Below are positions 4,413-15,091 of a DNA stretch of 64,000 bases, piece after piece. The stretch is from NCBI GenBank assembly GCA_023205875.1, contig CP060755.1, positions 1,488,001-1,552,000 on the forward strand, given 5' to 3'. The notes under the pieces are model-generated. The model was not told where the DNA came from, did no database searches, and saw nothing but the letters and a program-made list of their open reading frames with translations. The stretch is from Chloropicon primus. Taxonomy: Eukaryota. Within the stretch, counting starts at the first letter, position 1. Each line of letters starts with the position of its first letter. The position numbers and the translations under genes are program-made.

Positions 4413-5495
4413 ATGATGGTGACGAGCGTGACGAACGGGATGTTCGCGAGGTCCGCGAGGGCGGGCGCGAGGAGGGCGAGGTTGGCCCCGCGGATGATGG
4501 CAGCGACGACCTCGCCGAAGAAGATCCTGATGCTTGGCGGGACGAGGTTCATCGGGGTGTACCTCGCCCGCTTGCTTGTGGACGAGGGGCACGAGGTCAC
4601 CCTGATGACCCGCGGGAAGAGCCCGGTGACGACGATGATCCCGGACGACACGCCCGAGTCGTACGAGGAGTACGCCAAGTCGGTGAACCACATCGCGGTG
4701 GACAGGAAGGACGCTGGCGCGGTCGAGTCGAAGCTCCGGGGCGCTAGCTTCGACGTCGTGTACGACATCAACGCGAGGGAGAAGGAGGACATCCTCCCGA
4801 TCCTGAGCTCCCTCCCCAACCTCGACCAGTATATCTTGTGCTCCTCGGCGGGGGTGTACAAGAAGAGCGACATCATGCCCCACTGCGAGGTGGACGAGAC
4901 CGACCCCCAGAGCCGGCACAAGGGGAAGCTGAACATGGAGGCTCACCTCGAGAGCTGCGGCGCCAACTTCACCAGCGTCAGGCCCGTTTACATTTACGGT
5001 CCGCTGAATTACAACCCCGTCGAGGAGTGGTTCTTCCACCGCATCGCATCGGGCAGGCCGATCCCGGTGCCAGGGAACGGGAAGCAGATCACCCAGCTTG
5101 GTCACGTGAAGGACCTCGCCACCGCCTTTGTCAAGTGCCTCGGCAACGAGAAGGCCAGGAACCAGATCTACAACATCAGCGGGGAGCGCGTCGTGACTTT
5201 CGACGGGATCGCCAAGGCCTGCGCCCTTGCCGCCGGCGCGCCCGAGCCCGAGCTCGTCCACTTCGACGCCGCGGACTACGACTTTGGCGGCAAGAAGGCT
5301 TTCCCGATGAGGGACCAGCACTTCTTCACTTCTGTCGAGAAGGCGATGGAGGATCTAGACTGGAAGCCCGAGTTCGACTTGGTGGCGGGCCTCACCGACT
5401 CTTACCAGAAGGACTTTGGCAGAGGAACCTTCCGCAAGGCGGCCGACTTCACCGTCGACGACATGATCCTCGACAAGTTGAAGGTCATGACTTGA
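4413..5495 (+). CDS. CSP41B: Chloroplast stem-loop binding protein CSP41b (NAD-dependent epimerase/SDR fold)
   Basis: Transit-peptide-like N-terminus; 'ILMLGGTRFIGVYLARLLV', 'RPVYIYGPLNYNPVEEWFFHR', 'FPMRDQHFF', 'DFGRGTFRKAADF'. Confidence 0.92.
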   Translation: MMVTSVTNGMFARSARAGARRARLAPRMMAATTSPKKILMLGGTRFIGVYLARLLVDEGHEVTLMTRGKSPVTTMIPDDTPESYEEYAKSVNHIAVDRKDAGAVESKLRGASFDVVYDINAREKEDILPILSSLPNLDQYILCSSAGVYKKSDIMPHCEVDETDPQSRHKGKLNMEAHLESCGANFTSVRPVYIYGPLNYNPVEEWFFHRIASGRPIPVPGNGKQITQLGHVKDLATAFVKCLGNEKARNQIYNISGERVVTFDGIAKACALAAGAPEPELVHFDAADYDFGGKKAFPMRDQHFFTSVEKAMEDLDWKPEFDLVAGLTDSYQKDFGRGTFRKAADFTVDDMILDKLKVMT

Positions 5496-5716
5496 TTCAG
5501 CGCGAGCACCGGACGTCCCGGCGCGTGAACGTCAAGTGATTCAAGCGTCCGTAGTTATCCTTCCCCAAATACACTGTGTAGAGGCTGTAGAAGATTGTTT
5601 TTTTTTTTGCGATCAGAGTAGACGATCGTGTAACGAGTAAGTGCCCTTTACTTAGCTTTGTTCTGTTTATTATTACAAGGGTTAGATGTTTAGAGTACGT
5701 GGCACACGAAAAAAAC

Positions 5717-10595: not shown

Positions 10596-12518
10596 TCATG
10601 CGCCTACAGCCGCCAGGGCCAAGGCGACGTCATCATCAGCTGCGGAATCGTCTGTTTCCCTCATGATATCCGAGGCCAAGGTTCGTATGTTGGAGGACAG
10701 ACCCAAAGTGCCCGCTGAGAGGTCCGAGAGCCCGAAATTCAGCTGCATCCGCAGCTCCTTCCTCTCAGCTTCCAGCTCCGCTACCTTGATCAGCAGGAGG
10801 GTGTACTCCCTCTCCAGCCTCGAAGAGTTCTCCTCCGCTTTGCCGAGCTTGCGCTTGAGGTTCGCATTGGCGTTCAAGTAAGTCTTAATGGCTGACTGCT
10901 GTGCTTCCTCGTGCCTCTTTGTTGTGGTGGCCCTTTCCAAGGCAAAGTTCCTTCTCGAGTCCTCCAGCTCAGCCTCTTTTACCTTGATCTGGTCTTCGTA
11001 ACTCCTGCGGCAAGACCTTAGCCTGTCCTCGACCTGGTCAAATTCGTGCTCAAGCTTCTTCTTCTCCCTCTCCAGGCGCTCGGCCTCCGAGGAGGATCTC
11101 AGGCACTTGTCCGTCTGCTTTTCGAGATCCTGCAAGATTGCCGAGTTCTCCTTCTTGCACCTGATCACCTCTGTCTGCAACTTCCTGGCAGTCTCCTCCG
11201 CGCTGTCGACCTTGTCCTTCAGCACCGAGTTCTCCTCCTTGAGCAGAGCGTTGGTCCTCTCCAGAGTCACGATCTTCTCCACGCCGGAGTCCAACTCCAT
11301 CTGCAGCTGAGACAGCCTCTTCTGCGTCTCCATCATCGAGGCGCGGTCCTTCGCGTCGTTCTCGATCCCGGAGAGTTTCAACCTCGCGTTCGCAGCCTCA
11401 AGCTTGCCCACGTATTCCTTGTGCTCGTCTTGCAAATCTTTGATTTCCTTCATGTGCTGGGTCGTCAGCAGAGCCAAGCGCTTCTCCTGCGACGCCATGG
11501 AGTTCTCGAGGGTCCTCTTGTCCCTCTCGAGGTTCGACTTCAGTTTCAGGACATTGCTCTCGTCCAGGGTCCGTTCGGCCTCCCTCTGGACGGAGAACGC
11601 CTCCAGTTCCGACTTTTGCTTCGACAGGTCCTTCTGGGCCTGCAGCAGTTCCTTATGCAGCTCCGCGTCCCTTTCCTTCGTCTTCCTCATCTCCTCCTGC
11701 AAGTGCTCGCACTGCCGGTGGAGCGTGTCGTTCTTGCTCTTCAAGCGCGACTCCGACTCCCACCACTCGGCCCTCGCCTCGTTCAGGGCCTTCACCTCCT
11801 TCTGCACCTCCGCGTCAGCTCGGAGTCTGGCCTCCCTCTCCTGCTTCACCTCGTCGAGAAGGGACTTTTGCTGCTGCTCCAGGCTCAGGCACTGGACTTC
11901 CAGCTCGTTCTTCGCCCTCGTCACCTCGTTTGGATCCTGACCGAAGAGCTCCGTCAGTTTCTTCGTCTCCTCCACTTCCTCGAGGAGAGCCGAGTACCTC
12001 GACTCTTGGACCTCCAAGTCATTCTGCAGCCGCCGTGTCGTGTTGGCGAGTTCCTCCTTCAGCACCTCCTGCACCTTCCACAGCTCAGTGCAGTCCTCTA
12101 TCTTTTCGTGCACGAGGCCGTCGAGCTGGTCGATCTTGGCCAAGAAAGGACCCTCGATCTCCGTCCTCAGCCTCTCCTCCAGAGCCTTCGCCTCGGTCTG
12201 CGTCAAGATGTGAGACTTGGCCTCCTCGAAGTTCTTGTAGCTCTGCTCGAGCTCCTGGGCGAGCTCCTCCACCGTGGCGGAGACCTCCGCCTCCCGCGAG
12301 ACCAAGTCGCTCCTCAGGACGTTGTTCTCCTCCTGGAGCTCCTCGTTATTCGCTCTCAACTCCTTGTGCACTGCCTGCAAGTCCACGAAATTTGACCGCA
12401 GCCTCACATTCTCGCGCTTGATGTCCTGGAGAGCGCGCAAGAGCTTCTCGAGCTTCTCCACGCGACCGAGGTCCTCCTCCCCTCCCCCGCCAACCCACTC
12501 CTCCGACGTCGACGACAT
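10596..12518 (-). CDS. Long coiled-coil protein, CEP83 (CCDC41, centriole distal appendage)-like
   Basis: All coiled-coil. 'KSHILTQTEAKALEERLRTEIEGPFLAKIDQLD' resembles the recalled CEP83 segment (ILTP..LELLR..I..ELE.P...R...LD). ATG at 12518. Confidence 0.5.
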   Translation of the reverse strand: MSSTSEEWVGGGGEEDLGRVEKLEKLLRALQDIKRENVRLRSNFVDLQAVHKELRANNEELQEENNVLRSDLVSREAEVSATVEELAQELEQSYKNFEEAKSHILTQTEAKALEERLRTEIEGPFLAKIDQLDGLVHEKIEDCTELWKVQEVLKEELANTTRRLQNDLEVQESRYSALLEEVEETKKLTELFGQDPNEVTRAKNELEVQCLSLEQQQKSLLDEVKQEREARLRADAEVQKEVKALNEARAEWWESESRLKSKNDTLHRQCEHLQEEMRKTKERDAELHKELLQAQKDLSKQKSELEAFSVQREAERTLDESNVLKLKSNLERDKRTLENSMASQEKRLALLTTQHMKEIKDLQDEHKEYVGKLEAANARLKLSGIENDAKDRASMMETQKRLSQLQMELDSGVEKIVTLERTNALLKEENSVLKDKVDSAEETARKLQTEVIRCKKENSAILQDLEKQTDKCLRSSSEAERLEREKKKLEHEFDQVEDRLRSCRRSYEDQIKVKEAELEDSRRNFALERATTTKRHEEAQQSAIKTYLNANANLKRKLGKAEENSSRLEREYTLLLIKVAELEAERKELRMQLNFGLSDLSAGTLGLSSNIRTLASDIMRETDDSAADDDVALALAAVGA

Positions 12519-12600
12519 CCTTCGCCACACGCACACACACTCTCTCTGGCGCTCCCCCTTCTGTCGTATTGTGCCCAATTTAAAACTACCGCGAAAAAAA

Positions 12601-12863
12601 TCGTAGCGTGACGGAGGAGTACACCTCTCAATGCTGTGGCAAATGCGGAAACCTCAAGAAGAACCTGGGTGGATCAAAGGTTTACAAGTGCCAGAAGTGT
12701 GGCTTCAAGTGCGGTCGGGACGATAACGGGGCACGCAACATCCTTCTCAAGCACTTGTGTGAACCACAAGAAGTGTAGCTCTTCGGAGCTGCTCGGGTTT
12801 GTTAGTACCGATATCCCCAGGCCATTGTTTCACCAACCAATGGCTTTGAAACTAAACTAACAG
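12601..12863 (+). mobile_element. 5'-truncated Fanzor2 / IS607-like TnpB element remnant (nuclease 3' end plus omegaRNA/right end)
   Basis: Intergenic, more AT-rich than the flanking genes. TnpB/Fanzor C-terminal coding fragment followed by a structured RNA ending ...ACTAACAG|GG. Left boundary uncertain. Confidence 0.78.
12608..12778 (+). pseudogene. C-terminal fragment (56 aa) of Fanzor/TnpB RuvC nuclease
   Basis: Translates VTEEYTSQCCGKCGNLKKNLGGSKVYKCQKCGFKCGRDDNGARNILLKHLCEPQEV*: ExYTS motif, CxxC-x14-CxxC zinc ribbon, RuvC-III RDxNxARNI. In-frame TAA at 12581 upstream and no ATG. Below the 60-aa ORF-track cut-off. Confidence 0.87.
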
Positions 12864-12885
12864 GGAATTACCTCAAATAAATTTA
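12775..12885 (+). ncRNA. Candidate Fanzor omegaRNA scaffold (12775-12863) plus guide (~12864-12885)
   Basis: GTAGCTC-TTCG-GAGCTGC hairpin (12775-12792). TGTTAGT (12800-12806) is complementary to ACTAACA (12856-12862). Stem AGGCCATTG/CAATGGCTT (12819-12846). Position at the nuclease 3' end is typical of omegaRNAs. Confidence 0.62.
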
Positions 12886-12918
12886 CTTCTTTTTTTTTTT
12901 TTAGGAAAAGAAAAGATT

Positions 12919-14637
12919 TCACGAGTTGGTCGCCTGCTGAAGTTGGTCCGCCATGATGCTCAACTGGTCGTGGAAGATGACCTTCATCTCCTTGATGTCG
13001 TCCTCGAGCTGCTCGATCCTTTCCTCCCCTTCGCCCACCAGGATCATGGCCGTGTCGCACCGCTTGGTCAAGTCGTTCACGGTCCGCTCCAGCTTCACGC
13101 ATTCATCCAGGGCCTCGTTCCTTGACTCTTCTGTGCTCCTCAGCTGCTCCTTCAGGCTTCTCACTTCCCCGTCCTGGTCCCTCCCGCCGTTCTGAAGCAG
13201 GCCCCAATTGATTTTGGCACTGGAGTCTTTGAGCAAGTCCTCGAGGCCGTTCGAGTCCTCGAGGGCCGCCTCGCCTCTGCCGGACGTGCCCAAGTGACTC
13301 AACTGCTCCTTCTGCTCGTCGATGATCTCCCCGTTCGTCTTAATAATCCCCTTGTACCTGTCCTCCAGGTGCCTGATCTCACTCTCCTTGTCGGCCAGTT
13401 TCCTCTCAAACTCCATCTCCTGCCTGTCAATCCGTTGCAGCAGGGACTGCTCTCTCTCGCTGAAGCTCTTCACCTCGTTCTCCAGCCCCGCGGCTTTCCT
13501 CACCGAGGACAGCACCCTTTGGTGCTGCTGCTCCAGCTGCCTGTTCGTGTCCGCCACCGTCTCTTTCAGCTTGATGACGACCTCCTCGGTAGACATCGCG
13601 ATAGTCTCCGAGGCCAGGAGCTTCCCCTCAAGAACTCGGATGTGGTCGTCCTTCTCCGCTAGCCTGGCCCTGAAATCAGCCGCCACGGCGTTTGCCTCCT
13701 CAGAAGCCTGCTGCGCCCCGGCCCTCAGCATCTCGATCTCCGCGAGGTATGGCTTCTGTTGATCCGCGTAGGCGTTCCCCATTTCCGCCAGCTTCGTCTC
13801 CAGCTGCTGGTACTTGTGCTCCAGGAATCGATTCTCTTTTCGGACGCTGTCCTCCCTCTCCGCGGCGGTGCTCTCCAATTCCATCAAAGAGCTCTGGAGC
13901 CTCTGCACTTGCTCGGAGAGCTTGTACTCCTTCTCCCTCGAGAGAATCGCCTCGTGCTTGTGCTCCTCCTCAAGGCGCGCTCTGTAGTCCTCCAGCTGCT
14001 TCTCGTACCCCCTCTTCAGCTTGTCCGACATGGCCTCGTACTTTGCGCGCTCCTGCTCCAGGTCCTTGGACAGGTTCTCAAACTTTTCTCCGTTTTCACC
14101 GCCACCCCCCGGGCCACTGCCTTCGCAGTTCTCCCTCCGAAAGCCCTTCTTGAGGCTCTGCACTTGGTCGTGCAAGCGCTCCCTCTCCGCGGTCTCCTCC
14201 CGCAGGCTGCTCCTCAGCTTCTTCACAGTCCCCTCCAGCTCGCCTATCTTCCGTGCCAGCCCGTCCCCCTCGCCCTGGAGCGCCGCTATCGTCTCGTCCT
14301 TGTCCCTTATCCGGGTGTCTTTCGTGTCCTGAGAATCCCTCAGCTCATGCAGCTCGGCCCGCAACCCGTCCCGCTGCTCTGTGACGCCGATGAGCTTATC
14401 CTCCAAGGACGCCAACCGCTCCGCGAACTCCTGCGTGAGCTCCTCCATTTCGTCGCCCCCCTGCCCCCCCGTTGGGCTCGAGCCCGCACGAGCACGCGCC
14501 TGCAGCTCCTCATTCTCCTCCTGCAAAGCCTTATTCAACACGCCAAGCGTCGCCACCTTCCTCTCCAACTGCTTCACCTTCCGCGAAAGTTGCGCGGACT
14601 CCGCCCTCGGCGAACTCCCCACCCCGCTCATCCCCAT
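12919..14637 (-). CDS. TMF1: TATA element modulatory factor TMF1 / golgin candidate 5
   Basis: 'KDETIAALQGEGDGLARKIGELEGTVKKLR' (TMF DNA-binding-like) and C-terminal 'RCDTAMILVGEGEERIEQLEDDIKEMKVIFHDQL' (TMF TATA-binding-like). Confidence 0.82.
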   Translation of the reverse strand: MGMSGVGSSPRAESAQLSRKVKQLERKVATLGVLNKALQEENEELQARARAGSSPTGGQGGDEMEELTQEFAERLASLEDKLIGVTEQRDGLRAELHELRDSQDTKDTRIRDKDETIAALQGEGDGLARKIGELEGTVKKLRSSLREETAERERLHDQVQSLKKGFRRENCEGSGPGGGGENGEKFENLSKDLEQERAKYEAMSDKLKRGYEKQLEDYRARLEEEHKHEAILSREKEYKLSEQVQRLQSSLMELESTAAEREDSVRKENRFLEHKYQQLETKLAEMGNAYADQQKPYLAEIEMLRAGAQQASEEANAVAADFRARLAEKDDHIRVLEGKLLASETIAMSTEEVVIKLKETVADTNRQLEQQHQRVLSSVRKAAGLENEVKSFSEREQSLLQRIDRQEMEFERKLADKESEIRHLEDRYKGIIKTNGEIIDEQKEQLSHLGTSGRGEAALEDSNGLEDLLKDSSAKINWGLLQNGGRDQDGEVRSLKEQLRSTEESRNEALDECVKLERTVNDLTKRCDTAMILVGEGEERIEQLEDDIKEMKVIFHDQLSIMADQLQQATNS

Positions 14638-15091
14638 TCCATCGACGAGAGTTGAGATCTCTCACGCCTACGCCTCTCCTTCTCTCTCCCCTCGTCTCTC
14701 CGACGAGCACCGAGGAAGACCTGGTGGACAAGGAAGCGCTGTCCTCGACTCCCTCGCCTGCCCCCAATTATCGACACACGAACGACCCGCCTCTCCTCCC
14801 CTCTCACAAACGAGCCCAGCAGAGGGAGAGCCGAGAGAGCCTGCCTCTCCTCTTTGTGAAACATTTCCATACGGAAATGTCACGTGCGAATATTTGGGAG
14901 GAACGGGATGAAGAGGTTGTCCCTTTCAAGCGCTTTGAAGGGTTGGGTTGGGAGACAGGGGAGGAGAATATTCGATTCCAAAGCCGCCAGCGTTGACTTT
15001 GAGGTGAATGCGAGGCGTGAGGGCTCATTATTGCTTGACCGAAAGCGTGCGGCATACGGTGGCCAGGTTCAGTACGGGAGCGAGCGACACC

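Follow-up and report, generated by a model that had tools for sequence, protein, structure and literature searches.

A Fanzor2 C-terminal fragment in an intergenic spacer of Chloropicon primus

The locus and its host neighbours

The window analysed here, a 64-kb stretch of Chloropicon primus DNA, carries a short plus-strand reading frame in a spacer of about 400 nt between two minus-strand host genes (Table 1). Translation of 12608-12778 gave 56 codons, including a HLCEPQEV end, followed by TAG at 12776-12778, and the peptide read from 12608 on the plus strand was VTEEYTSQCCGKCGNLKKNLGGSKVYKCQKCGFKCGRDDNGARNILLKHLCEPQEV. The frame holds no Met and extends from stop to stop over 12584-12778; at the position of the upstream TAA (12581), one contig of sequencing run X2 carries a C instead. 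An earlier account made from the letters alone (the sequence-only reading) had described a 56-aa frame without ATG, with a stop at 12581 and lying between host genes, and both the translation and the list of open reading frames agreed with it.

Table 1. Features of the remnant locus (positions in the window).
Feature	Position	Strand	Basis
Upstream host gene, 640-aa coiled-coil protein, ATG at 12518	10596..12518	-	ORF and Pfam search
Probable 5' leader/promoter side of the upstream host gene	12526..12607	.	loose contig ends before 12526
In-frame TAA closing the remnant frame upstream	12581..12583	+	sequence and ORF list
3' tip of a Fanzor2 ORF, 56 codons and TAG, no start codon	12608..12778	+	profile, PDB and homologue searches
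Shifted RuvC-II glutamate (= ApmFz2 Glu467)	12614..12616	+	alignment to 9b0l, first Glu of TEEY
Zinc finger CxxC...CxxC, Cys codons at 12635, 12644, 12689 and 12698	12635..12700	+	translation, Pfam
RuvC-III aspartate (= ApmFz2 Asp501), Asp of RD	12719..12721	+	alignment to 9b0l
Stop-codon hairpin with a 7-bp stem (12775-12792) and UUCG loop	12773..12794	+	fold
Non-coding right-end sequence homologous to family copies	12776..12808	+	score vs P0001 read-through tail equalled in 0 of 300 shuffles
Possible further omegaRNA/right-end sequence, homology unproven	12809..12864	+	12798-12806 pairs with 12856-12864 around hairpin 12819-12846
TMF1/golgin-like coiled-coil host frame, stop to stop, stop at 12919	12919..14661	-	Pfam TMF_TATA_bd above cut-off

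The 640-aa product of the upstream host gene matched no Pfam family and found only generic coiled-coil look-alikes, and its protein cluster has one member. Its look-alikes in the Atlas were the centrosomal/ciliary proteins CEP83 and SCLT1 (0.95, few shared features), which serve as a lead only. On the other side, 140 nt separate the stop of the remnant from that of the TMF1/golgin-like gene. Past the candidate RNA region, and ahead of the TMF stop, the plus strand has a run of 14 T residues (12889-12902) that could belong to the host 3' UTR or be a Pol III-type terminator. A scan for bacterial-type promoters and terminators, a kind of scan ill-suited to an alga, found none.

Two other assignments were considered for parts of this spacer. 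That the segment might be an exon of an unrelated host gene, an outcome that the sequence-only reading had itself named, was ruled out, the remnant being antisense to both neighbours and plainly Fanzor-derived. The stretch 12526-12607 was disfavoured as the left end of an element, both by the depth of family contigs there (160-230 vs about 5600) and by the absence of an inverted partner.

Identity of the fragment and its resident family

To the Pfam family PF07282, the 56-aa peptide matched with E=1.2e-12 and 48.2 bits (cut-off 26.3), which excluded a chance match; the NCBIfam model guided_TnpB was matched with E=4e-9, under that model's whole-protein cut-off, and the top sequence match in the PDB was 9b0l, the mimivirus ApmFz2 (E=1e-9). 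These three results upheld the claim that a Fanzor2/TnpB C-terminal remnant lies here. The catalytic triad of ApmFz2 is reported to consist of Asp324, Glu467 and Asp501 (PMC11832414). The glutamate which had been taken for the relocated RuvC-II residue does align to the catalytic Glu467; it stands six residues ahead of the zinc finger in the remnant (E-EYTSQC-C), and this shifted position was kept in all 121 homologues with a zinc-finger motif among the 122 that were examined. The C4 zinc finger and, behind it, the RuvC-III Asp are both present. The RuvC-I DPG motif, the WED/REC part and a full ORF, which are found in members such as P0005, were missing from the remnant and from the window. 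Judged from its residues, the remnant is the C-terminus of a Fanzor2, a fragment of a family member rather than a working enzyme. This copy is unable to encode a nuclease, because one of the three catalytic residues and all of the RNA- and DNA-recognition domains are gone.

The search for longer homologues returned 8 matches among 10 candidates, and six of these were C. primus clusters labelled 'putative IS605 transposase' with 73-79% identity; over the 56 aa, identity to the C. primus family was 73-84%. The clusters hold up to 46 members, the size of cluster 2 being inflated by unrelated members that were drawn in through a fused gene model, and the full-length members of about 723 aa carry an ALDPG RuvC-I motif, so that the full-length copies with RuvC-I which the sequence-only reading had proposed to seek do occur. 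In the P0012 and P0006 gene models the Fanzor ORF is fused to host sequence (for P0012, to the SET-domain-labelled P0013). This suggests either that copies inserted into or beside host genes or that the annotation is mis-spliced. In DNA runs apparently of the same organism, family contigs reached a depth of about 5100-5600 against 120-165 on the flanks, a 36-41-fold ratio that is not an exact copy number.

This family is already in the literature. The genome description counted 25 'IS605-like transposases' in C. primus (PMC6731263), and the family was described as Fanzor2*, captured by non-IS607, non-autonomous elements (bioRxiv 10.1101/2023.08.09.552727 / PMC10711439), with terminal inverted repeats, variable 5-nt target duplications and no TnpA, and with an autonomous partner reported as not found (bioRxiv 10.1101/2023.08.09.552727). 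P0002 is UPR03652.1, which is listed in a curated Fanzor table (PMC10711439 supplement), and C. primus Fanzors are cited also in PMC12633428. Chloropicon is not named in the main text of PMC10432273 and PMC10530073, and neither IS605 nor transposase was matched in 12 of the 20 supplementary files of the genome paper. In the literature searched there was no description of the remnant copy itself or of a Chloropicon omegaRNA. On the evidence of homology, the remnant is a member of the Chloropicon Fanzor2* clade, a family already published for C. primus. It was thus correct that this genome hosts an OMEGA-type family, as the annotated multi-copy C. primus Fanzor2* clusters (73-79% to the remnant) attest, and the idea of a hidden discovery did not hold, since the family had been annotated, counted (25) and described as Fanzor2*.

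About 8% of the protein is left, namely 56 of some 723 residues. Homology to the Chloropicon family starts at 12607, before which the family contigs have loose ends, and tblastn of the 723-aa protein against 12301-12620 gave no match. The full-length clade profile found no other match in the 64-kb window (next E=3.9), and blastn and tblastn found no other family copies in it. Within 12480-12960, where repeats of at least 7 nt were sought, neither paired inverted-repeat arms nor a 5-nt duplication could be recognised around the remnant. No full-element DNA turned up when JGI metagenome contigs were scanned with exact patterns and at the protein level, no viral contigs with the family protein or the right-end motif were found, and a short-protein search (30-98 aa), which was insensitive and missed known relatives of 83 and 92 aa, gave no candidate. 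Another scrap of the family, about 79 nt resembling 12683-12761 with 11 substitutions and 3 gaps, lies inside a 5.2-kb contig with unrelated flanks (run X2, record 5); such scraps are therefore not rare.

Age and origin of the fragment

A 52-row tree united the remnant, the C. primus rows and the metagenomic P0041 in one clade (99/98) and placed the remnant outside the five C. primus rows (98/94), a position that rests on 56 residues, or 26% of the columns. Its terminal branch measured 0.035 in that tree and 0.004 in one of 43 rows. The placement asked for by the sequence-only reading was thus obtained, among Fanzor2 proteins that include the curated C. primus Fanzors; the trees contained no Fanzor1 rows. 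The residues which differ from present copies told the same story of position: at 9 of 12 differences from P0002 the remnant carries the residue commoner among the 8 nearest outside relatives, with the reverse in 2, and at 10 of 13 differences from P0005 it likewise carries the commoner outside residue.

One may ask whether the remnant is simply a decayed member of the C. primus subfamily that is abundant today. Over 160 nt it departs from the high-depth family contigs at 19 positions and by 2 gaps (about 88% nucleotide identity), which speaks for such an origin; the fit of the differences to outgroup states speaks against it. Against a profile built without the C. primus rows, the remnant scored 95.7 bits and the main family 99.0-99.4. 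When 18 random substitutions per 150 nt, the observed divergence, were introduced, the score stayed within 3.7 bits in none of 1000 trials; the median drop under random decay was 31 bits vs 3.6 observed, and the frame together with 6 key residues survived in only 70 of 1000 trials. With six random substitutions, an equally small drop was obtained in 59 of 1000 trials. Because of these decay trials and the outgroup residue states, the fragment is not a worn copy of today's family, and we regard that origin as very improbable. The sequence-only reading had spoken of recent decay. This was roughly right, but for a different reason, since where the remnant departs from today's copies it mostly keeps ancestral states and does not show decay.

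A position basal to the present family, together with near-zero change of its own, would make the remnant a record of an older sister lineage, which is a new point, if a modest one. Either it came from a sister master that was selected until shortly before the copying, or the fragment itself has been constrained; the intact frame, the intact hairpin and the near-zero branch are equally expected under selection on the fragment. Among the X1 and X2 contigs listed, none joined the remnant alleles to an intact upstream part.

As to a source outside the alga, the nearest relatives of the C. primus family were unnamed metagenomic proteins with 50-59% identity. Together with some 30 metagenomic Fanzor2 clusters (P0041-P0069, 36-59% identity), the C. 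primus family makes up a supported clade. Viral loci were fetched for 80 of 101 entries, of which 28 were tried for the tree and 20 rows were treed. The 8 best-scoring viral loci showed 33-43% identity to P0002, none of the 20 viral rows fell inside the 17-row clade, and one viral locus, L003, was placed on a long branch as sister of the wider clade with weak support (SH-aLRT 86). A scan for the serine-recombinase catalytic motif found none in the six frames of the 64-kb window; in the control it was present in 29 of the 80 viral loci. A 523-aa Fanzor2 from a giant-virus bin (L001:2249-3820) had no TnpA motif on its strand.

An IS607 element such as ISNY2A1 of a chlorovirus has a serine-recombinase TnpA and neither terminal inverted repeats nor target duplications (bioRxiv 10.1101/2023.08.09.552727). 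That the remnant derives from an IS607 element, with TnpA and Fanzor2, taken directly from a giant virus could draw on the best solved relative being viral (ApmFz2), on the frequency of an upstream serine-recombinase motif at viral Fanzor2 loci (29/80) and on the weak sister position of L003. Over the 56 aa the C. primus copies (75-84%) are however far closer than the 8 best viral loci (54-60%), the published description of the family is non-IS607, and the window shows no TnpA motif. We consider direct transfer of this kind extremely improbable. The IS607 context that had been proposed was not supported, in view of the published inverted repeats, 5-nt duplications and lack of TnpA in the family and the missing motif in the window. 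Acquisition from a nucleocytovirus fared no better, given metagenomic relatives at 50-59% vs viral ones at 33-43% and the empty count of viral rows in the 17-row clade, and a giant virus as the immediate source of the remnant is refuted. It is still conceivable that the clade as a whole goes back to a distant viral ancestor.

Right end, second locus and comparison with known systems

Proven homology continues for about 30 nt past the stop of the remnant. The hairpin over the stop codon (12773-12794) is likely an omegaRNA stem. When paired by eye, loose ends from both the main family and a second subfamily form the same stem; among copies, an A-U pair is replaced by G-C on both sides and a U-G pair by U-A through a change on one side, and in the window copy one basal pair is broken and the loop differs from that of other copies. 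A 151-nt seawater piece (run X6, record 11) has 16 differences over 12689-12773. This seawater variant shows a third version of the hairpin in the same place, with an interrupted stem. Further on, 12809-12885 looked colinear with the P0001 read-through tail without reaching significance (122 of 300 local and 23-30 of 250 anchored shuffles), and Rfam returned two chance-level matches only (E 3.2 and 4.4). Family contigs in runs X3 and X4 have 165-nt loose ends past 12766, that is, about 150 nt or more past the stop; since this is longer than the room left here, the far right end of the remnant is probably missing or unrecognisable.

These features bear on whether the remnant might be a guide-only locus resembling a 'ghost', transcribed perhaps from a divergent host promoter at 12526-12607, whose omegaRNA would load Fanzor protein made from intact copies in trans. 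The stop-codon hairpin is preserved, with a compensatory change from A-U to G-C and a UUCG loop, 12774-12880 folded better on the plus strand than 196 of 200 shuffles, the folding z of 12740-12880 was -2.3 on the plus strand and -0.75 on the minus strand, and a 9-pair stem joins the conserved motif at 12798-12806 to 12856-12864 (matched in 54 of 2000 shuffles). Intact protein genes occur in C. primus, and ghost omegaRNAs of SpuFz1 are reported to work in trans (PMC10432273). Against this, only about 30 nt past the stop are proven homologous and the room is 140 nt, where the family runs on for 150 nt or more; the omegaRNA pseudoknot is described as depending on terminal bases (bioRxiv 10.1101/2023.08.09.552727; PMC11832414), and no terminus was located at the remnant. 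A single covarying pair in three variants carries little weight, and it may equally have been inherited from a once-active master. We therefore hold a guide-only role to be unlikely. Three runs guessed to be RNA showed no contig with the remnant alleles and no cover of the upstream host gene, which is no evidence of silence. In X3 and X4, also labelled RNA by guess, contigs of the family 3' end had a depth of 1280-1890 vs 17-18 for the TMF contig, a contig depth that cannot rank expression.

Part of the spacer has a counterpart elsewhere. Contigs from X1, X2, X3 and X12 match the window from 12526 on with a different left flank, which is absent from the window; X3 record 12 differs from 12526-12608 at 2 positions, and the depth of the contig covering 12746-12814 was 1.7-2 times that of its flanks in X1 and X2. 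Because of these junction contigs and the raised depth on 12746-12814, a block of about 289 nt, made of the host leader and the remnant (12526-12814), seems to be present twice. At 12526, 8 nt above the host ATG, the junction adjoins a 5-nt identity common to both loci. Contigs of the second locus occur in two runs guessed to be RNA (X3, X12). Judged from the contigs, either copy may be the original insertion, and copying may have run in either direction.

A piece of about 200-290 nt may accordingly have been copied in ectopically, with the second locus or a full copy as its source, so that a full element never stood here; templated repair of a double-strand break or a small segmental duplication would provide the mechanism. 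Such copying draws support from the second locus, with its 12526-12608 and, by depth, 12746-12814, from the 5-nt identity beside the 12526 junction in both loci, and from the lack of a visible left end or target duplication at the remnant. It does no more than transfer the problem to the donor, a locus with the same truncation point, and retro-copying is unlikely as no poly(A) follows the fragment on the plus strand. We treat ectopic copying as a tentative and somewhat unlikely origin, one that is compatible with an inert fossil.

The spacer could also be compared with that of a relative. One contig (X7 record 14) matches both flanking genes at about 87% (10 differences in 84 nt and 8 in 57 nt) and holds 252 nt between 12480 and 12932 vs 451 in the window, which makes it 199 nt shorter. 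No match to the remnant was found in its spacer at 80% likeness, the spacer being otherwise unalignable. By its length, this single contig of a diverged relative is likely an empty site, and a lineage-specific insertion is supported because the 199-nt gap agrees with the 202 nt of proven remnant. The wild-sample runs X6, X7 and X8 had no piece spanning the remnant copy.

Taken together, the Fanzor2 3' tip and the start of its non-coding right end are preserved here with a conserved hairpin, and the upstream 92% is absent. We consider the segment 12607-12808 to be an inert fossil from an older sister branch of the abundant Fanzor2* family, with a probability of about 0.78. A non-autonomous inverted-repeat element with a Fanzor2 would have inserted in the spacer after the split from the related alga, and a deletion would then have taken the left end with the start, WED/REC and RuvC-I; the far right end was probably lost too. 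By analogy with established Fanzor2/TnpB biology, the protein of intact members would bind an omegaRNA from the right end of the element, and the complex would cut matching empty sites and so favour retention of the element. It is doubtful, and slightly more so than a guide-only role as such, that a guide-only locus of the older lineage was kept and copied with a host promoter to the second site, supplying the numerous intact Fanzor proteins in trans with an omegaRNA that carries a fixed host-derived guide. If true, Fanzor would have moved towards being domesticated by a minimal green alga as its own RNA-guided tool, and the case would bear on whether co-option of Fanzor guides by eukaryotic hosts happens at all.

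As an inert fossil, the remnant would testify that the element spread in the Chloropicon lineage in one earlier wave at the least. Its hairpin offers a natural point of covariation for the unstudied Chloropicon omegaRNA, and the roughly 30 metagenomic relatives (36-59%) are a place to seek the transposase partner. The remnant is an ordinary fragment of a known family and not a new system; partial and protein-less Fanzor copies are reported to be common (PMC10432273).

Compared with known systems, the remnant stands nearest to the C. primus Fanzor2* elements, with which it shares a clade (99/98), the layout of Glu, zinc finger and Asp, and the same post-stop hairpin and conserved motif. It differs from them in keeping only the last 56 of about 723 residues and in not being an annotated gene, and also in its ancestral residues (SQCC, NLKK, GGSK) and its branching outside the present copies. 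With ApmFz2 (9b0l), the Glu, the zinc finger and the RuvC-III Asp align one to one; that protein is full length and reported as active with a 247-nt omegaRNA construct (PMC11832414), whereas the remnant has no equivalent of Asp324 and no recognition domains. IS607 elements with Fanzor2 have the Fanzor2-type nuclease in common with the family of the remnant, but no serine-recombinase TnpA was seen here, and Fanzor2* is reported as having left the IS607 context. The Fanzor ghosts and partial Fz loci (PMC10432273) are likewise protein-less or partial copies with right-end RNA sequence and with intact copies in the same genome. The ghosts are described as functional, with both inverted repeats and a full omegaRNA (PMC10432273), whereas at the remnant the ends were not found and a piece of the ORF is retained.
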